From positions 2,717-66,716 of the forward strand of contig SVTR01000014.1 of NCBI GenBank assembly GCA_015063685.1: 64,000 bases of DNA, written 5' to 3'. This stretch comes from Oscillospiraceae bacterium (GTDB lineage Bacteria; Bacillota; Clostridia; Oscillospirales; CAG-272). Below are positions 10,301 through 64,000 of the stretch, piece after piece (the first letter of the stretch is position 1; every line of letters begins with the position of its first letter). The notes beneath the pieces were generated by a model. The model was not told the DNA's origin and did not search any database. It worked only from the letters and a program-made list of their open reading frames with translations. The translations under genes and the position numbers were made by a program.

Positions 10301-10544
10301 CTATTTTTTTGAACTTCATATGAGGGCTTTTTCGATCAGAAACGCTTTTTCTTTGATTGGTGACTCAGTTTTTGAGTCACCAATCTTTCTTCCATATCCT
10401 TTTGCGGCTGCTTCACCCAAGCGCTTTTGCCCCCATTCTTGACCATAGGCCGATTTGGAAGCGATGGAGTTAAGAGTGGTCCAAAGCGATCAAATCGGAG
10501 TGAAAACCACTACATATAGTTTTTTGGAGATAAAATACACTATA

Positions 10545-10705
10545 GGGCATCTCTAAATACTTAGTGTGCGGCGAGATGCGAGGGATTTTTTCGTCAGACT
10601 AAACAAAAATCTGCGCGCATAGTCGTCCCTATGCGAAAGAATTTTGTGACGTATGACGGAAAAAGCACCGTCATATCGGCGTGCGATGAGTTTTTAGAGA
10701 TGCCC
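10545..10705 (+). mobile_element. MITE family 1, copy A (161 bp)
   Basis: 13-bp perfect TIR GGGCATCTCTAAA / TTTAGAGATGCCC, flanked by TATA on both sides. By eye it differs from copy C at 2 positions. Confidence 0.85.
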
Positions 10706-10731
10706 TATACTTGCGCTTAGGGTAATAGAGA

Positions 10732-12963
10732 TCAGAAGTTCGGTGACAGAGCCAACGTTTCATTCGTTGGCTCTGTTTGGGGAGAAGCATCCTCCTCTCC
10801 TTCCGTCTTATCTTCAATATCTGTTGCTTGGGTAGACATCTCCTGCCAGACGGAAAAATGGAGATGACAGCAATCCGCGGGTTCTGTTCCCTCCACAAAC
10901 CACCCCACCATAGGTGGGTGCAGATCTCCCAGAGCGTCATAGCAATCCGGGGTAGCGATCTCTCCCGTCAGAGGACAAAGCTTGACGGGAACCACACCGT
11001 CACATACCTCAAAGGATGACCTCCTGTCGACGCCCCGATAGATCTTCTCGCAAGCCATCATGACGTCATCCCAGATATCAATGGAGGGATTGCCGATAAT
11101 GCCGTCCAAGGGTGCGGGATAGTCGTAGCCCATCCACACGCCGCAGAGCAGCTTGGGGGTATAGCCCACAAACCAGCGGTCACAGTTGTTCTGGGTAGTT
11201 CCTGTTTTACCCGCGGAGGGGATCCCCATCTCATCTGTCAAAAGCAACCCTGCGGCGGTACCATCCGACGTCACGGATGACAAAAGCTTGGTCATGACGC
11301 AAGCCTCGGCGGGAGACAGAACCCTTTCGCCCGTGGTGGAATTTTCCATGAGCACCCTTCCCTTTTCGTCCAGTACTCGGCGGTAGGAAATCGGTGGATG
11401 ATACACCCCCTCGGAGAAAATGGTATATCCCCCTGTCAACCCTCGTACGGTCACCCCCACGCTGTTCTGCCCCAACGCCAGGGAGGCTATGGTCATGTCT
11501 CCCACATTTTCCGCCGTGGGAGGTAAAAGCTCGCTTAAACGGAGGGTATCGTGAAGAAAATCAAAGGAGCGCTCCATCCCCACACGCCGCAAAATCTCCA
11601 CCGCAACCGTGTTCAAGGAATGGGAAACACTATCCCGTACCGTGACCCGTCCACGGTAGAGGCCATCCGCGTTTTGCGGCCAGGGACGCCCGTTCAGCTC
11701 TTCCAAGGGCACGTCCTCAAAAATACTGCTCCAAGTAATGACCCCATCCTTCAGGGCGGGGGTATATACGCTGAGGGGCTTGATGGCCGAGCCCGCGGGA
11801 CGGCGGGTCTGGGTGGCGTAATTTTGCAAATAGTATCCGTCTTTTTTTCCGATGGCACCCGCCACCGCCAGGATATCACCGGTATAGGGATCCATGATGA
11901 CGGCGGCAGATTGGGGTCTGCCATCGGTTCCCACAGGAAAATGCCCGATGGTTTCATAGTAGGACGTCAGGATTTCTTGAAGCGTCTCATCCATGGACGT
12001 TTCGATCCGAAGTCCGCCACTCGACAAAAGCAGCATGGCTCTTTCATAGCTGTAATCCAATCGCTCCTGCAAATCTCTCACCACGTCGGATATCACCATT
12101 TCTGTATACCAGGAGGTCACGGTGGTTGCGGACGAGGGCGCATCGCAGATCACCGGGGTTTCAGACATCGCCTCCGCGTACCGTACATCGTCAATATACC
12201 CCTGATCCCTCATCTCCCGCAGGATGATCTCCCGCCGCTGACGGTTTTCTTCGGGATGGGTGCGAGGATTGTAAAGGGTGGGGCGATTGGTGATGGCCGC
12301 TAAAGCGGCGCATTCTGCCAGGCTCAGCTCTGAGGGTTGCTTTTGAAAATAACAGGCAGACGCCGCCCCCACGCCCATACAACCGCTCCCCAAATTGATG
12401 ATATTAAGGTAGACCTCCAGGATCTTCCTTTTATCAGCTCTTCGCTCCAGGTCAAGGGCCGTAAACATCTCGGTCAGCTTTCTCTCGGGTGTCCGGTCAC
12501 GGTTCCCCGTGAGGTTTTTCACCACCTGCTGGGTGATGGTAGACCCTCCGAAGGAAGCGTTTCCCCGATGGATCAGATAATCCCAAACCGCATGGGCCGT
12601 TCGTTTGAAATCCACCCCTTCATGAGTAAAAAATCGTTTATCCTCAATGGCAACAAAGGCGTTGATCAGATCTTCGGGCACATCCTCGTAGGTCACAGGG
12701 ATCTGTTGGTGGATCTCCATCGGCAGTCCTTCGTCCAGCAAGTGATATCTGAACTCTCCCCCTCCCTTGGCTTCGGGATCCGCCGCATACAATCGGGCGG
12801 GGTTACTTTCCTCGTTCAAGGTCAAAAGACTCATATCCATGGTGGCACGGCTATAAGGCAACAGAAACAAAACCACTCCCACAACCGCCGTCATCAGCAG
12901 CAAAAAAAAGGTACACAGAACAACCAATAGTCGTTTTTTTCTTCTGATTTTTTTCTTTTTCAT
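10732..12963 (-). CDS. Class A penicillin-binding protein (PBP1A-type transglycosylase/transpeptidase)
   Basis: GT51 motifs AIEDKRFFTHEGVD and GGSTITQQ; transpeptidase SAIKP, SHSLN and KTGTT. ATG at 12963 (MKKKKIRRKK... then a TM helix) is preferred over the TTG at 13023. Confidence 0.9.
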   Translation of the reverse strand: MKKKKIRRKKRLLVVLCTFFLLLMTAVVGVVLFLLPYSRATMDMSLLTLNEESNPARLYAADPEAKGGGEFRYHLLDEGLPMEIHQQIPVTYEDVPEDLINAFVAIEDKRFFTHEGVDFKRTAHAVWDYLIHRGNASFGGSTITQQVVKNLTGNRDRTPERKLTEMFTALDLERRADKRKILEVYLNIINLGSGCMGVGAASACYFQKQPSELSLAECAALAAITNRPTLYNPRTHPEENRQRREIILREMRDQGYIDDVRYAEAMSETPVICDAPSSATTVTSWYTEMVISDVVRDLQERLDYSYERAMLLLSSGGLRIETSMDETLQEILTSYYETIGHFPVGTDGRPQSAAVIMDPYTGDILAVAGAIGKKDGYYLQNYATQTRRPAGSAIKPLSVYTPALKDGVITWSSIFEDVPLEELNGRPWPQNADGLYRGRVTVRDSVSHSLNTVAVEILRRVGMERSFDFLHDTLRLSELLPPTAENVGDMTIASLALGQNSVGVTVRGLTGGYTIFSEGVYHPPISYRRVLDEKGRVLMENSTTGERVLSPAEACVMTKLLSSVTSDGTAAGLLLTDEMGIPSAGKTGTTQNNCDRWFVGYTPKLLCGVWMGYDYPAPLDGIIGNPSIDIWDDVMMACEKIYRGVDRRSSFEVCDGVVPVKLCPLTGEIATPDCYDALGDLHPPMVGWFVEGTEPADCCHLHFSVWQEMSTQATDIEDKTEGEEDASPQTEPTNETLALSPNF

Positions 12964-13137
12964 ATGGTTTTGCCTTTCCCTGACGACATCCGCAATTTCT
13001 TTTTTCGGATCGAAGATGCCCAAAATAAATCGCCATTATTATATGTCAAAAGTGAATATTTACACCTGCGATGAGACATGATAATACCGACACGCAAGGC
13101 AGATTTTGCATTGAAAACCAAAAAGAAAGGGCATCTT

Positions 13138-13908: not shown

Positions 13909-13966
13909 ATTAACAAAAGGGAACCTCTAAAAACTCCATTGATGAGCAAGCCGCAAGGGAGTTTTT
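13909..13966. mobile_element. MITE family 2, minimal 58-bp copy (E)
   Basis: GGGAACCTCTAAAAACTC ... GAGTTTTTAGAGGTGACC inverted ends, flanked by AAAA on both sides. Confidence 0.7.
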
Positions 13967-13984
13967 AGAGGTGACCAAAAAAGC

Positions 13985-14020
13985 ATCTAAAAAACCTCGC
14001 GAGGCCCATAGTGGCCAAGC
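13985..14020 (+). terminator. Intrinsic terminator
   Basis: CCTCGC (13985..13990) / GCGAGG (14009..14014) followed by TTTTCT. Confidence 0.55.
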
Positions 14021-14033
14021 GAGGTTTTCTTAT

Positions 14034-14194
14034 GGGCATCTCTAAATACTCAGCGTGCGGCGAGATGCGAGGGATTTTTTCGTCAGACTAAACAAAAATC
14101 TGCACGCATAGTTGACCCTATGCGAAAGAATTTTGTGACGTATGACGGAAAAAGCACCGCTATATCGGCGTGCGATGAGTTTTTAGAGATGCCC
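14034..14194 (+). mobile_element. MITE family 1, copy B (161 bp)
   Basis: Same TIRs as copy A, flanked by TTAT on both sides. Its end lies 6 nt from the murE stop codon. Same subfamily as copy D (central hairpin loop TTGACC). Confidence 0.85.
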
Positions 14195-14200
14195 TTATGA

Positions 14201-15709
14201 TCAGGAATTGCCCGAAGCATAGTCCGAAAGAGCATTCAGCAGAACGTTTTTCTCACGGTACGCCACCTTTTGCTCTCCAACGAGCTGGTAGGTCTCGTGC
14301 CCCTTGCCCGCAAGCAGGATCATATCCCCGGGCCTTGCGACAGAAACGGCATACGCCACCGCCTCGGTGCGGTCGGAGATCATCACACGGGGACAGCTCC
14401 CCTCCGGGTACGCAGCGTCGATTTCCCGAAGGATGGCCTCGGGATCCTCTCGCCCGGGGTTGTCCGAGGTCAGGATGCAAAGATCGGCACGGATCCCCGT
14501 CACCTCGGCCAGCTCCCGACGCCGTTCCTTGGTACGCTCTCCCACAGAGCCGAAAAGACAGATCAGTCTCTCAGGGTGGTAGCTCCGCAACAGATCCAGC
14601 ATGGAGGCCATGCTGACGGCGTTGTGGGCGTAGTCGATGACATACAACACATGATCGTGGAAGACCGTCTCGAACCGCCCGGGGACGGTGGCCGTCTCCA
14701 GACTTTTACAGGCGTTCTCTACGGGTATACCATAGATCAGATGAGCCATGGCCATGGCACACAGGGCGTTTTTGACGTTGAACTCCCCCGGCTGAGGCAA
14801 AAAATGCATATGGGACAAGGCAAGGCCTTGAATTTTCAGGCCGTATTCCATGCCGGGGATGCCGTTTCGGATGACCCCTTGGATGGCCGTGGTGGTCCAG
14901 GCGGCGTCGGGGTGTCCCTTCGTGGAAAAGCCGACGATATCGGCAGGATCACCTTTCGTCATATCAGGCAAAGCGGGATCATCCAGGTTGCAAACCGTGA
15001 AATCGTGGGGATAGTCGGTAAACAGACGGTGCTTACAGGCGGCATAGTCGGCCATATCGGGATGCTCGTTGCCGCCAATGTGATCCGGAGAGAGATTGGT
15101 GAAAGCACAGACACGGAAGGAAAGGCCATAGGTGCGGTAAAGCTTGAGGCCCTGGGAGGAAACCTCCATCACCGCGGCGATCATCCCAGCATCCAGCATC
15201 TCACGTAAATATGCGTAGATCAGGAGGCTGTCAGGGGTGGAATTGACGGTAGGGTAGTGCTTGTCACCGAAAATAATGCCGTTCGTCCCCATGTAACCCG
15301 TAGGAACACCTGCATCGTTCAGAATTTTTTGAAGGAACAAGGCGGTGGTGGTTTTCCCCTTCGTGCCCGTGATGGCGAACAAGTCCATTTCCCGTTCGGG
15401 ATGTCCGTAAAAGGCGGCGGCAGCTTCAGCTTCCGCGATGCGGGTATCGGGAACTAGGATCTGCAACGCGTCGTCGGGCAAATCCAGAATTCGCTCCACC
15501 AGAAAATATCGACAGCCCTGATCATAGGCCTTCCGCGCATAGGCATGACCGTCGGAGGTAAAGCCCTTGATGCATACAAAAAGGCTGTCCTCTGAGGATT
15601 TTCTCGAATCCACGCAGACGGCAGATACGCCGGCTTTTTTCGAGGGTGCTTGCCCCGAGAGCGTGGCGTTTGACAGCTCCGCTATGATGGAAAATAAGGA
15701 AACGGACAT
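14201..15709 (-). CDS. murE: UDP-N-acetylmuramoyl-L-alanyl-D-glutamate--2,6-diaminopimelate ligase
   Basis: Mur ligase P-loop ITGTKGKTTT and C-terminal TSDNPGRED (DNPR-type, meso-DAP adding). ATG at 15709 follows AAGGA. Confidence 0.85.
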   Translation of the reverse strand: MSVSLFSIIAELSNATLSGQAPSKKAGVSAVCVDSRKSSEDSLFVCIKGFTSDGHAYARKAYDQGCRYFLVERILDLPDDALQILVPDTRIAEAEAAAAFYGHPEREMDLFAITGTKGKTTTALFLQKILNDAGVPTGYMGTNGIIFGDKHYPTVNSTPDSLLIYAYLREMLDAGMIAAVMEVSSQGLKLYRTYGLSFRVCAFTNLSPDHIGGNEHPDMADYAACKHRLFTDYPHDFTVCNLDDPALPDMTKGDPADIVGFSTKGHPDAAWTTTAIQGVIRNGIPGMEYGLKIQGLALSHMHFLPQPGEFNVKNALCAMAMAHLIYGIPVENACKSLETATVPGRFETVFHDHVLYVIDYAHNAVSMASMLDLLRSYHPERLICLFGSVGERTKERRRELAEVTGIRADLCILTSDNPGREDPEAILREIDAAYPEGSCPRVMISDRTEAVAYAVSVARPGDMILLAGKGHETYQLVGEQKVAYREKNVLLNALSDYASGNS

Positions 15710-16204: not shown

Positions 16205-16469
16205 TAAATTGTTGTTTAGCGTGGGCTTACTATGAACCCGTAGGGGCGAACTGCGTTCGCCCGCCGTTCTCCAAAAGCCTTTGCTTATCAATATACTTTT
16301 TATTACGGGCGAACACAGTTCGCCCCTACGACCACGTTGGTCAGAAAACCGTAAACAACAATTTATCCGCCCAACTACCCATTGCGGGATGCGGTACGCA
16401 CAGGATGCACTACCCCGAGCGTTGGCCGCGGCACGGCCGCCCCCACCGCAGGTGGTAAACAACAATTTA
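16205..16469 (+). repeat. Mosaic repeat array 1: TIR/REP-doublet element (module I, 16205..16365) plus half-palindrome module II
   Basis: Boundaries are AAATTGTTGTTT (16206) and AAACAACAATTT (16353, 16457), with TA at the outer flanks. Internal REP doublet 16240..16329 (GTAG-GGGCGAAC-TGC-GTTCGCCC ... GGGCGAAC-ACA-GTTCGCCC-CTAC). Confidence 0.85.
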
Positions 16470-17134: not shown

Positions 17135-17469
17135 ATGTTGTTGCCGGCCGTGCCGGCTGCCAAAGCTCGGGGGAGTATATCATATGCCTACTGCATCACG
17201 CGATGGGTGGTTAGGCAGCTAAATTGTTGTTTAGCGGAGGTTTAATGAAAACCCGTAGGGGCGAACTGCGTTCGCCCGCCGTCCCCCAAAAGCCTTTGCT
17301 TATCAATATACTTTTTATTACGGGCGAACACAGTTCGCCCCTACGACCATGTTGCTCAGAAAACCGTAAACAACAATTTATCTGACCAACTGCCCATCGC
17401 GGTATGTGGCCTGCATGGGTTGAATAACCCCGAGCCAAAGCCCCACCGCGGGTGGTAAACAACAATTTA
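17132..17469. repeat. Mosaic repeat array 2: II' (inverted) - module I (17220..17380) - II palindromic composite
   Basis: Boundary motifs at 17133 (degenerate AAATGTTGTTG), 17221, 17368 and 17457. REP doublet 17255..17344. The left and right arms are diverged inverted copies of each other. Confidence 0.85.
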
Positions 17470-29074: not shown

Positions 29075-29155
29075 GGGAACCTCTAAAAACTCTATTGGCG
29101 AGCGAGCCGCAAGGGAGTTTTTCGTCAGATGATACAATGGTTTCGCCGTCAAGTT
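29075..29155 (+). mobile_element. MITE family 2, truncated copy (F)
   Basis: The left TIR GGGAACCTCTAAAAACTC and the internal TTTTTCGTCAGATGATACAAT ... CCGTCAAG match copy G. The right TIR is missing. Confidence 0.6.
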
Positions 29156-38138: not shown

Positions 38139-38643
38139 TAAATTGTTGTTTGCGTGGGCTTACTATGAACCCGTAGGGGCGAACTGCGTTCGCCCGCCGT
38201 TCCCCAAAAGCCTTTGCTTATCAATATACTTTTTATTACGGGCGAACACAGTTCGCCCCTACGACCATGTTGCTCAGAAAACCGCAAACAACAATTTTGT
38301 TGACCAACGCTCCATCGTGGTATGTGGTACGCATAGGATGCACTACCCCGAGCGGTGGCAGGCGGCACAGCCGCCAAACAACAATTTATTTGACCGCCAT
38401 CTCTTGCGGAAAGACGGTTGGCAAGAAGCAACCTTCTTCGGCATTTTGGGGCGGGCACTGCCCGCAAACAACAGGGCATCTCTAAATACTCAGTGTGCGG
38501 CGAGATGCGAGGGATTTTTTCGTCAGACTAAACAAAAATCTGCGCGCATAGTCGTCCCTATGCGAAAGAATTTTGTGACGTATGACGGAAAAATCACCGT
38601 CATATCGGCGTGCGATGAGTTTTTAGAGATGCCCAACAATTTA
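38139..38643 (+). repeat. Mosaic repeat array 3: module I (38139..38297) + II + III, interrupted by MITE copy C
   Basis: Boundary motifs AAATTGTTGTTT at 38140 and AAACAACAATTT at 38286, 38376 and 38466 (exactly 90-bp phasing). REP doublet 38173..38262. The last motif is split by the MITE, with an AACA duplication. Confidence 0.85.
38474..38634 (+). mobile_element. MITE family 1, copy C (161 bp), nested in array 3
   Basis: Same TIRs, flanked by AACA on both sides. Its end lies 6 nt from the stop codon of the flippase gene. Confidence 0.85.
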
Positions 38644-40224
38644 TCTTCTTTTCCTCCCCACCCCAAAAAGCACCGCCGCGCCGTACAGGCACATGACCGA
38701 GGCCACAGTACCAAGAGTATGGATGGGTGTAATCTCCTGCCAGCCCAGCCATCCACGGGCAATCCGCACAAGGATAACCGCGCCGCCTCCCGCCACCAAC
38801 GGCCAGGCCACGAGCCGAAGAAATTTTCCGCCCGACGGCAAAAGTCCGGGAATCAAACGGGCGATAAAACAGAAATTCAAAATGACGATGACAGAATCAC
38901 AGGCCAGCGTGCTGATAGGTGCCCCCATCATGCCAACCTCGGGGATACCCAGAAGGACGTAGGCCAGGATCACCTTCACGGCCGTGCCGCATATCAGCGA
39001 AATCACCGGTTTTGCGGCGTGTCCTCCGCCCTGCAGAAGCGCACCGCTGACCGTAATCAGACAAGACATAGGCACAGACAGGGCAACGCAAGTCAGCCAC
39101 GGAGTCGCCATGGCCACAGCCTCGGGCTGTGCGCCAAACAAAAGGGTCAGTACATCCTCAGAAAAGACCGACATTCCCAGGGCAGCCGGAATGGCAATGA
39201 CCAGCGTCAACCGCAGGGCCGACACCGTGATTTTTTTCGCTTGCGCCATCCCTTCACCCGTGCGCTCGTTCAAGGCCGCCGACAAAGCAGGCACCGTAGG
39301 CAAAGAGACCGCCGTCGTGAGGGTGGGAAGCATATGAAAAAGGGGCAAGACCAAGGTAGAATAACACCCGTAGAGGGCATTGGCGGCGATCTCGTCATAG
39401 CCCACCGATTGCAAACGGCGGAGGATCAACGCCAGATCCACCACCTTGGTCACACTCATGACAGCCGCCCCAAAGGTCACGGGAACGGCAGTCACAAGGA
39501 GCCGTATCAGGATATCCAGGTCCGCATTTCTGTCCCGCGAAAGCTTTGTTTGAGACTCTCGACGGTCAAGCATGATCTTGTGAATCCAAAGATAGACCAC
39601 CGAAATTCCCGTTCCCACGGTCAGTCCCAAGACGGCATAGGCCGCCGTAGTGGGCAGATCACAACCCCGTTTTTGAGCCATTGACGCAAAGGTCAGTCCC
39701 AAAAGCAGCTTGCCCAAGGCCTCCATGACCTGGGACACGGCGGTCGGGGTCATGGATCGCTTACCCTGAAAATAGCCGCGAAAGGCAGAGGACAGGCAAA
39801 TGAGCAGGACGGTGGGAGAAATCATGCGCATCCCAGCCGCCGCGCCGCTGTTTTTGAGGAGAGCCGCTAAGGCATCCGAAAAACCATACAACAGTAGCGC
39901 TCCCACTGTGCCGATGATCACAAAAGCCATCAAAGCAACTTTGAAGACCCGCCGTGCCTTATCCTGCGCCTCCTGCCCATCCTTGACGGAGGCAGAGATC
40001 AGCACCGACATAGCCACGGGAAGCCCCGCGGTGGCGATGACACAAAACAGGGCGTACAACTCGTAAGCGGTATTGAAATACCCCATTCCCTCGGTGCCGA
40101 GATAGGCCAGCATGGGAATGCGGTACAAAAGTCCGATCACCTTGACGATGAGCGCCGAGATGGTCAGCACGCTGACGCCGCCGAAAAATTTCCGTGCGGA
40201 TGTGTTTTGGTTTGCTCGTTTCAT
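38641..40224 (-). CDS. MOP-superfamily flippase (polysaccharide biosynthesis protein, SpoVB/YabM-like)
   Basis: ~527 aa, about 14 TM helices, N-terminus KFFGGVSVLTISALIVKVIGLLYRIPMLAYLGTEGMGYF typical of MurJ/SpoVB-type proteins. Located upstream of mazG, as yabM-yabN is in Bacillus. Confidence 0.75.
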   Translation of the reverse strand: MKRANQNTSARKFFGGVSVLTISALIVKVIGLLYRIPMLAYLGTEGMGYFNTAYELYALFCVIATAGLPVAMSVLISASVKDGQEAQDKARRVFKVALMAFVIIGTVGALLLYGFSDALAALLKNSGAAAGMRMISPTVLLICLSSAFRGYFQGKRSMTPTAVSQVMEALGKLLLGLTFASMAQKRGCDLPTTAAYAVLGLTVGTGISVVYLWIHKIMLDRRESQTKLSRDRNADLDILIRLLVTAVPVTFGAAVMSVTKVVDLALILRRLQSVGYDEIAANALYGCYSTLVLPLFHMLPTLTTAVSLPTVPALSAALNERTGEGMAQAKKITVSALRLTLVIAIPAALGMSVFSEDVLTLLFGAQPEAVAMATPWLTCVALSVPMSCLITVSGALLQGGGHAAKPVISLICGTAVKVILAYVLLGIPEVGMMGAPISTLACDSVIVILNFCFIARLIPGLLPSGGKFLRLVAWPLVAGGGAVILVRIARGWLGWQEITPIHTLGTVASVMCLYGAAVLFGVGRKRR

Positions 40225-45628: not shown

Positions 45629-45790
45629 GGGAACCTCTAAAAACTCTATTGATGAAAGAGCCGTGAAGAAGTTTTTCGTCAGATGATACAATTTTTCGAA
45701 CGCGTAGTGGCGCTACGCGAAGAAAAATATGTGAAATATGACGGGAAAGTTACCACGGATTCTCCGTCAAGAGAGTTTTTAGAGGTGACC
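45629..45790 (+). mobile_element. MITE family 2, full copy G (162 bp)
   Basis: GGGAACCTCTAAAAACTC ... GAGTTTTTAGAGGTGACC, flanked by TTTA on both sides. It lies 23 nt upstream of the rel start codon. Confidence 0.8.
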
Positions 45791-45794
45791 TTTA

Positions 45795-45860
45795 GGGGCA
45801 GCTCTGCATTCGACGGATAAAGCCCTGTCATTCGTCGCGCGATGAGCGTCAGAGATGCCC
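45795..45860 (+). mobile_element. MITE family 1, 66-bp deletion derivative (H)
   Basis: Ends GGGGCAGCTCTGCA ... CGATGAGCGTCAGAGATGCCC resemble the family 1 TIR and subterminal sequence. Flanked by TTTA on both sides. Its end lies 6 nt from the recJ stop. Confidence 0.6.
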
Positions 45861-54858: not shown

Positions 54859-54920
54859 CACAAATACGGAGGAAGCACTTGTATGCTTCCTCCGTATTCG
54901 GTATTTTGAGATAACCTACA

Positions 54921-55081
54921 GGGCATCTCTAAAAACTCATCGCACGTCGATATGACGGTGCTTTTTCCGTCATACGTCACAAAATTCTTTCGCATAGGGT
55001 CAACTATGCGTGCAGATTTTTGTTTAGTCTGACGAAAAAATCTCTCGCATCTCGCCGCACGCTGAGTATTTAGAGATGCCC
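54921..55081 (-). mobile_element. MITE family 1, copy D (161 bp, inverted relative to A-C)
   Basis: Same TIRs, flanked by TACA on both sides. By eye it has ~4 differences from the reverse complement of copy B. Its end lies 6 nt from the LRR lipoprotein stop. Confidence 0.85.
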
Positions 55082-55087
55082 TACAAT

Positions 55088-63878: not shown

Positions 63879-64000
63879 TAAATTGTTGTTTAGCGGCCAC
63901 CTGCGGTGGGGCTTTGGCTCGGGGGAGTATATCATATGCCTACCGCATCACGCGATGAGTGGTTAGGTAGATAAATTGTTGTTTGCGTGGGCTTACTATG
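63879..64000. repeat. Mosaic repeat array 4 (II' module plus the start of module I; runs off the window)
   Basis: AAATTGTTGTTT at 63880 and 63973. The interval matches the inverted module II of array 2, and the sequence after 63973 matches the start of module I in array 3. Confidence 0.8.

Follow-up and report, generated by a model that had tools for sequence, protein, structure and literature searches.

A family of 161-nt MITEs in an Oscillospiraceae bacterium and its probable mobilization by an IS5-group element

Prokaryotic MITEs comparable to the elements described here include the Correia elements of Neisseria. In general, prokaryotic MITEs such as QMITE2 of Coxiella insert into AT-rich targets, lie in intergenic regions, carry TIRs and target-site duplications (TSDs), and are moved in trans by related ISs; their transcripts would fold into stable stem-loops (PMC10969869). 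A further example is bcr1 of the Bacillus cereus group, which is described in Delihas 2011 (PMC3184786, after Klevan et al. 2007) as a ∼155-bp repeat that is flanked by 5-bp direct repeats and transcribed, has a non-conserved genomic distribution, and carries compensatory changes that keep its double-stranded structure.

The MITE family analyzed here resembles bcr1 in being a Firmicute repeat of similar length with short direct-repeat flanks, a non-conserved genomic distribution, and compensatory changes that keep a double-stranded structure. In contrast to bcr1, for which 5-bp repeats and transcription are reported, its TSD is 4 bp long and a partner IS has been identified. Compared to prokaryotic MITEs in general, it represents another sequence family with another host range and another partner IS. 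Searches of the literature for the TIR string, for the IS and MITE ends, and for a description of the family returned no match. MITEs of this general type, including compensatory changes in their stems, are well known, whereas this sequence family is new. The only aspect that goes beyond routine is a strongly conserved core that does not stem from this IS and that recurs across bacterial classes and in a second type of element shell.

The window, i.e., the whole stretch of 64,000 nt that was analyzed (G000:C4:2717-66716), belongs to a 2.72-Mb draft genome that consists of 57 contigs and is 93% complete. Judged by neighboring genes, it groups with MAGs of the Clostridia/Oscillospiraceae type from uncultured bacteria of herbivore and human guts. 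A first-pass annotation of this DNA had described four full copies of a 161-bp MITE, and we could reproduce their coordinates, the perfect 13-bp TIRs (GGGCATCTCTAAA...TTTAGAGATGCCC in 4/4 copies), and the distinct 4-bp repeats that flank them (Table 1). Two hairpins had been assigned to all copies. The central hairpin, CGCATAG-N6-CTATGCG, is indeed found in 4/4 copies, whereas the right-arm hairpin (TATGACGG-N8-CCGTCATA) pairs without a mismatch only in copies A, C, and D; copy B reads CCGCTATA, which introduces two mismatches. Across the genus, this right-arm hairpin is 79% paired with little covariation, and its bases pair better with the left arm of the element in an end-to-end rod.

Table 1. 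Features of the 161-nt MITE family, its sister family, and associated repeats in the window (window coordinates).
Feature	Position	Strand	Description
MITE copy A	10545..10705	+	161 nt; minority subfamily; loop TCGTCC; TSD TATA at 10541-10544 and 10706-10709
Left TIR of copy A	10545..10557	+	GGGCATCTCTAAA
Core block L of copy A	10587..10610	+	TTTTTCGTCAGACTAAACAAAAAT; near-invariant in 15 species
Central hairpin of copy A	10616..10635	+	CGCATAG-N6-CTATGCG; arms 10616-10622 / 10629-10635
Core block R of copy A	10642..10663	+	TTTTGTGACGTATGACGGAAAA; pairs with block L in the rod
Right TIR of copy A	10693-10705	+	Right end equals IS left end over 18 nt (10688-10705)
Sister-family mini-element	13919..13976		58 nt; GGGAACCTCTAAA...TTTAGAGGTGACC; TSD AAAA; repeat family D3
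MITE copy B	14034..14194	+	161 nt; majority subfamily; loop TTGACC; TSD TTAT at 14030-14033 and 14195-14198
Other repeat family ending in AAATTGTTGTTT (D2/D4)	16216-16426, 17165-17232, 38149-38359, 63917-63984		Motif also at 38635-38646
Sister-family element, truncated 5′ part	29075..29137		Repeat family D3
MITE copy C	38474..38634	+	161 nt; TSD AACA at 38470-38473 and 38635-38638
Sister-family MITE	45629..45790		162 nt; ends GGGAACCTCTAAA...TTTAGAGGTGACC; TSD TTTA
Degenerate derivative	45796..45860		∼65 nt; family-1-like ends GGGCAGCTCTGCA...GTCAGAGATGCCC; stacked beside the sister element
MITE copy D	54921..55081	-	161 nt, inverted; window inverted repeats I1-I3; TSD TACA (+ strand; TGTA on the element's strand) at 54917-54920 and 55082-55085

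The four copies belong to a family (family 1) with about 85–95 members on at least 40 contigs of the genome. BLAST searches of the genome yielded about 83 full-length matches as well as fragments at contig ends, and pairing of ends detected 88 TIR-bounded elements of 150–180 nt, 78 of which are members of this family and 10 of a sister family with the ends GGGAACCTCTAAA / GGTCACCTCTAAA. Both families together account for 0.77% of the assembled sequence; of the 114 contig ends, 9 are located inside a copy. In the 161-nt class (n = 67), the median distance from the consensus is 3 positions, and 27 pairs of copies are identical. Judged by these sequences, this is a young, star-like population, in agreement with the initial description of the family as recently active, and the element may still be moving in this organism. 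Copies A and C differ from each other at 2 positions and copies B and D at 4. The two subfamilies that had been proposed on this basis are borne out by the diagnostic columns 21, 72, 81, and 84, and the TTGACC loop is the majority form genome-wide.

Several variant forms accompany the 161-nt class. Eight composites of 327 nt contain a sister element inserted at TAAA (positions 56–59); they share an identical inner junction and each has its own outer TSD, indicating that the composite moved as a unit. A 174-nt form, CAGAC-TAAA-GGTCACCTC-TAAA-CAAAA, of which there are 7 copies, each with its own TSD, is such a composite after a deletion between the two TAAA repeats that left a 13-nt solo-TIR scar. 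At the lower end of the size range, two identical 46-nt minis are flanked by different TSDs (TATA and TACA), which indicates that ∼23 nt per end are enough for movement. Across elements of 46–327 nt, the longest open frame has 53 codons and no family match. It had been suggested that translations of these copies could contaminate protein databases; frame +2 is indeed open through the element, but the effect is negligible, with 5 such small proteins among 5.8 billion.

The sister-family MITE in the window is built like the 161-nt MITE, and the ends of the two belong to one superfamily. Its family comprises 18 full copies in the genome and is also found nested within family 1 in the 327-nt composites. 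No right end was found near the truncated sister element (Table 1).

An exact 4-bp TSD is present at 68 of the 87 TIR-bounded copies for which both flanks are available. Only 2 and 3 copies match in the 5-bp and 3-bp registers, respectively, so that the duplication is specifically 4 bp long and chance is excluded. For an empty-site comparison, the element and one 4-mer were removed in silico and the restored sequence was searched in the same genome. The filled site at C57:43673 has two empty paralogs, C36:17851-17936 (84/86 identical positions) and C39:8130-8215 (82/86), each with a single TCCA, and four more family-1 sites have partial empty paralogs across the junction. For the sister element nested in family 1, 75–79 uninterrupted counterparts with up to 86/86 identity carry a single TTTA. 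The single 4-mers at empty sites show that the flanking 4-mers are duplications made at insertion, as the first-pass annotation had assumed when it took the direct repeats as evidence of transposition. Its reading of the element as a MITE likewise stands: the copies are non-coding, TIR-bounded, numerous, and found in varied contexts, with TSDs validated by related empty sites.

Copy B is located 6 nt after the stop codon of murE, between the stop and the native terminator. At the same site in the congeners G006, G002, and G003 there is no MITE, and the stop codon is directly followed by the terminator. Removal of copy B together with one ATAA restores this layout, but the sequences are too diverged for proof at the base level, which is why empty sites within the genome were used above. 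The insertion of copy B beside the terminator means that the murE 3′ UTR gained a 161-nt rod hairpin upstream of it. The native terminator hairpin, AAAACCTCGCGAGGCCCATAGTGGCCAAGCGAGGTTTTC (+ strand as read; 13977-14033), lies between copy B and the 58-nt sister mini-element.

The restored insertion sites share a 14-bp palindromic consensus, TAAAY-TWWA-RTTTA (or TAAAY-NNNN-RTTTA; the middle block is the duplicated 4-mer), in a genome of 53% GC. The mean target score is 6.47 out of 10 at insertion sites vs 2.87 at random positions, and scores of at least 8/10 are reached by 20.7% of the insertion sites compared to 0.095% of random positions. A recurrent site, ATAAAT-TGTT-GTTTAG, fits this consensus perfectly and lies in AAATTGTTGTTT, the end of another repeat family, which occurs 419 times in the genome at ≤1 mismatch. 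Seven of 58 family-1 insertions are found in AAATTGTTGTTT at an identical position, and IS relatives in other metagenomes, like the MITE, have repeatedly hit this motif at one position. In the window, copy C occupies this recurrent target (...AAAC-AACA-ATTTAT), and its restored site carries AAATTGTTGTTT on the minus strand.

Most insertions avoid genes. With 89% of the genome coding, only 5 of 78 copies lie inside called genes, which leaves at least 73 intergenic; the gene calls come from a dicodon model that over-calls (4250 genes), so that 5/78 is an upper bound. This model was used instead of a naive test of ORFs across the insertion site, which was confounded by shadow ORFs (49% vs 92%). 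Copy A, for instance, is intergenic, 26 nt past the stop of a 763-aa gene at 10732-13023(-). Genome-wide, many copies end 5–6 nt past stop codons (e.g., window 14195-14203). As A, Y, and the 4-bp TSD follow TAA in the consensus and put 6 nt between a TAA stop and the end of the element, the target consensus accounts for this spacing, and a regulatory reading is not needed. The orientation relative to upstream genes is unbiased, with 36 copies on the same strand and 45 on the opposite strand.

The first-pass annotation had noted that the window lacks a transposase. This holds for the window as well as for the whole assembly, in which searches with PF01609, PF13546, NF033581, and PF05598 and a tblastn search (E ≤ 10) were all negative, and an all-vs-all comparison revealed no multi-copy ORF of at least 200 aa in the genome. 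TIR pairs 0.5–4 kb apart were considered as a parent IS and rejected, as each combined a MITE end with a fortuitous near-match and the ORFs they enclosed were unrelated. No contig of the bin is shorter than 4.4 kb, and members of the IS clade described below mostly occur on their own contigs of 1.2–1.9 kb in gut metagenomes. An IS assembled on its own as a contig of ∼1.2 kb would have been left out of the bin, so that the absence of the IS here is weak evidence.

A search with PF01609 across the genus, followed by a scan for ends, identified a candidate partner in G007. This IS (L067:1005-2247) is 1243 bp long, has the TSD TGCA and the ends GGGCATCTCTAAAAACTCC and GGGCACCTCTAAAAACCAC, and carries one uninterrupted ORF of 343 aa. 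A second copy is located at a contig end in G010 and shares 99% aa identity with the G007 transposase. The protein contains the DUF772 and DDE_Tnp_1 domains, with the ORF covering positions 4–200 of 200 of the DDE_Tnp_1 profile, and scores 279 bits on NF033581 (cutoff 140), 86.8 on PF01609, and 83.8 on PF05598. Alignments with the transposases of E. coli IS5 and ISKpn26 cover 92% of the protein at 28% identity (E ∼1e-26); on sequence grounds, it is a predicted IS5-family transposase. Among the DDE families that had been suggested for a 4-bp TSD (IS5, IS1380, and IS701), IS5 is thus the correct one; two congeners carry an IS with these ends and a TSD of 4 bp.

Like the described members of the IS5 group (the type element E. 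coli IS5 / insH, and ISKpn26), the candidate partner has a single ORF for a DDE transposase of ∼340 aa with DUF772 and DDE_Tnp_1, short inverted ends that start with GG, and a 4-bp duplication (TGCA in G007 and TGTT in P0009). It differs from them in its transposase, which is only ∼28% identical to that of E. coli IS5, and in its hosts, which are uncultured gut Clostridia. The target specificity of IS5 is YTAR; the target observed here, Y-TWWA-R within TAAAY-NNNN-RTTTA, is related to it in form and not identical.

The IS and the MITE are connected by their termini. Nucleotides 1–18 of the IS match the right end of the MITE exactly (18/18) at about 85 sites of the genome, and the similarity ends at ∼18 nt. 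Neither the IS nor its relatives contain the two conserved blocks of the MITE core; the best match has at least 8 mismatches, equal to that in shuffled sequence. This lack of a shared interior shows that the MITE is not an internal-deletion derivative of the IS; it shares only the ends, as do other non-autonomous MITEs with IS5-type ends. What links the two is therefore the termini, the length of the TSD, and the preferred target. Relatives of the IS at 72–82% aa identity retain the ends GGGCAYCTCTAAAAACT, and in G007 the MITE ends, GGGCACCTCTAAA, are identical to the right end of this genome's own IS.

Target preference ties the MITE independently to this IS clade. The P0009 IS (72% aa identity), which is found on unrelated metagenome contigs, has the TSD TGTT and sits in ATAAAT-TGTT-GTTTAG, the recurrent target of the MITE. 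The P0002 IS (82% aa identity; Logan contig L124) has the same left flank, and its flanks, TGTT and AACA, do not match. On L124, each of these flanks is preceded by TAAAT in inverted orientation, i.e., they are inverted rather than direct repeats, for which a chimeric assembly or recombination of two IS copies might be responsible. Other IS copies also have TAAAT beside the junction.

The genes that flank the IS in G007 and G010 have orthologs in the present genome (∼65% aa identity), suggesting that the short IS contigs are native to the genus. Intact IS copies were found in only 2 of 28 congeners, compared to MITEs in 20 of 24, and five further congeners contain decayed IS remnants. In gut metagenomes, the transposase clade is very large.

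Based on these data, the element is very probably a non-autonomous MITE that belongs to the IS5 group of the IS5 family and is moved in trans by a 1.24-kb IS with the same termini. Both the assignment of this particular IS as the mobilizer and a cut-and-paste chemistry are inferred. According to this model, the DDE transposase would bind the TIRs of 13–18 bp, with ∼23 nt per end being sufficient, and would make a 4-bp staggered cut at the AT-rich palindromic target TAAAY-NNNN-RTTTA, so that repair of the stagger would give the 4-bp duplication. The interior is a self-complementary rod with a central hairpin, maintained in the lineage by compensatory change, and selection against gene disruption together with the TAA in the target consensus would leave copies in intergenic positions, often 5–6 nt past stop codons.

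The element folds end to end as a single rod, with −76 kcal/mol for the + strand (z −9.45) and −58.4 kcal/mol for the − strand (z −6.58). In an alignment of 31 copies from 15 species, 91.5% of the alignment cells are paired and 25 of 62 pairs are changed on both sides. In shuffled controls the mean is 12.2 and 0 of 500 reach 25, and slid controls give 7–14. Over the 31 copies, pairing in the central hairpin reaches 94.5%, with compensatory changes at 3 of its 7 pairs. We read the rod as a property that is selected within the element lineage, not as an RNA gene. Searches of Rfam gave no match at the gathering score (best permissive hit 27 bits vs 249), and no promoter-like site was found in the element, which has only a weak 5-bp terminator-like stem. 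Together with the unbiased orientation, these observations do not support a function at the RNA level.

The interior of ∼85 nt contains two near-invariant blocks of ∼25 nt, TTTTTCGTCAGWCTAAACAAAAAT and TTTTGTGACGWATGACGGAAAA, around the covarying hairpin, and is not derived from the IS.

Three other explanations were weighed against mobilization in trans by the same-termini IS. A different transposase might move the MITE, with the 18-nt match to the IS5-type ends reflecting shared ancestry of the ends or convergence. Such a view could draw on the lack of similarity beyond the termini, on the rarity of the IS in the genus relative to the MITE, and on the negative transposase searches in the present genome. 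Against it stand the 18/18 terminal match, the equal TSD length, the use of the unusual target ATAAAT-TGTT-GTTTAG by P0009-type IS copies on unrelated metagenome contigs, the agreement between the G007 MITE ends and the right end of the IS in the same genome, and the decayed remnants of this IS in five further congeners. We therefore regard another transposase as quite unlikely.

The remaining two explanations conflict with the insertion footprints and were rejected on the TSD and empty-site evidence. That the element is palindromic and intergenic is reminiscent of REPINs, which are handled by RAYT (Y1 HUH) transposases. However, REP/REPIN mobilization makes no TSDs, whereas exact 4-bp TSDs flank 68 of 87 copies here, empty sites have single 4-mers, and the ends match those of a DDE-type IS, so that a REPIN-like element is extremely improbable. 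The same can be said of a non-mobile structured RNA, either a gene or a cis-regulatory RNA, with fixed genomic positions: the very stable fold and the covariation in 25 of 62 pairs would suit it, but each copy has flanks of its own, TSDs as well as empty sites are found, three congeners have no element at the murE site, and neither the orientation (36 vs 45), the Rfam search at the gathering score, nor the promoter search points to an RNA gene, which makes this reading almost certainly wrong. The first-pass annotation had itself raised the possibilities that the 4-bp repeats are not duplications and that the sequence is a structured RNA gene with a fixed context; neither is the case. Mobilization in trans by the IS5-group element remains the preferred explanation.

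Conservation analysis detected the family in 20 of 24 sampled species of the genus at 70–85% identity and in 0 of 16 other genera of the order. Copies in congeners have an exact 4-bp TSD in 20 of 28 cases, and the two ends change together across 15 species. These homologs were found by a BLAST-type search, whereas an exact 38-nt pattern gave no match in species-representative genomes, since the congeners are too diverged for exact matching. In an even sample across the class with 399 scored genomes, two further genomes match, belonging to two other families, and this number is a floor. The core motif is also present in many gut MAGs from roe deer, horse, buffalo, and human. One viral contig, IMGVR_UViG_3300031555_009732, begins inside a copy of the core motif (L145:10-33); a viral contig with the core could be a vector for its spread or just a host fragment.

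Related elements occur in more distant gut bacteria. In G045, a genome labelled Selenomonadaceae whose murE protein is 33% identical, 292 candidate sites were found (L223-L234). There, the copies agree with the 161-nt MITE in their ends (GGGGACCTCTAATAAT...), core, and 4-bp TSDs and have diverged arms, implying spread across bacterial classes in the gut. G046 (murE 36% identical) carries full-length copies at 77% identity. G049, a human-gut Eubacteriales MAG (murE 45% identical; L235-L240), has the same ∼85-nt core in a different shell of 172–211 nt with the ends GGCAATACCGCATAATT...AATTGTGCGGTATTGCC (the GGCAATACCGCA/TTAA shell), of which about 20 pairs were found, all bordered by the TSD TTAA, and whose central hairpin differs from that of the 161-nt MITE by compensatory changes. 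No partner IS was found for this shell in G049, where many ends lie at k-mer-length offsets from contig starts.

Among gut bacteria with murE proteins of only 33–47% identity, the interior is nearly unchanged. The ∼85-nt core may have a function of its own, and two or more transposition systems may have taken it up and spread it from one bacterial class to another, a conceivable reading that we consider doubtful. Roles of the core in that case could be, e.g., binding of a host or element protein or boosting of mobilization.

The IS5-group IS and the MITE form an internally validated pair from uncultured gut Clostridia, in which mobile elements are poorly catalogued. The pair supplies exact ends, a mobilizable unit of minimal length (46 nt), and a target preference defined over 14 bp. 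For genome analysis, such repeats matter because they break assemblies (9/114 contig ends) and can be taken for ORFs by gene callers. If the core is indeed a functional module that moves between shells and classes, it would provide a case in which selection on the cargo of non-autonomous elements is tractable.
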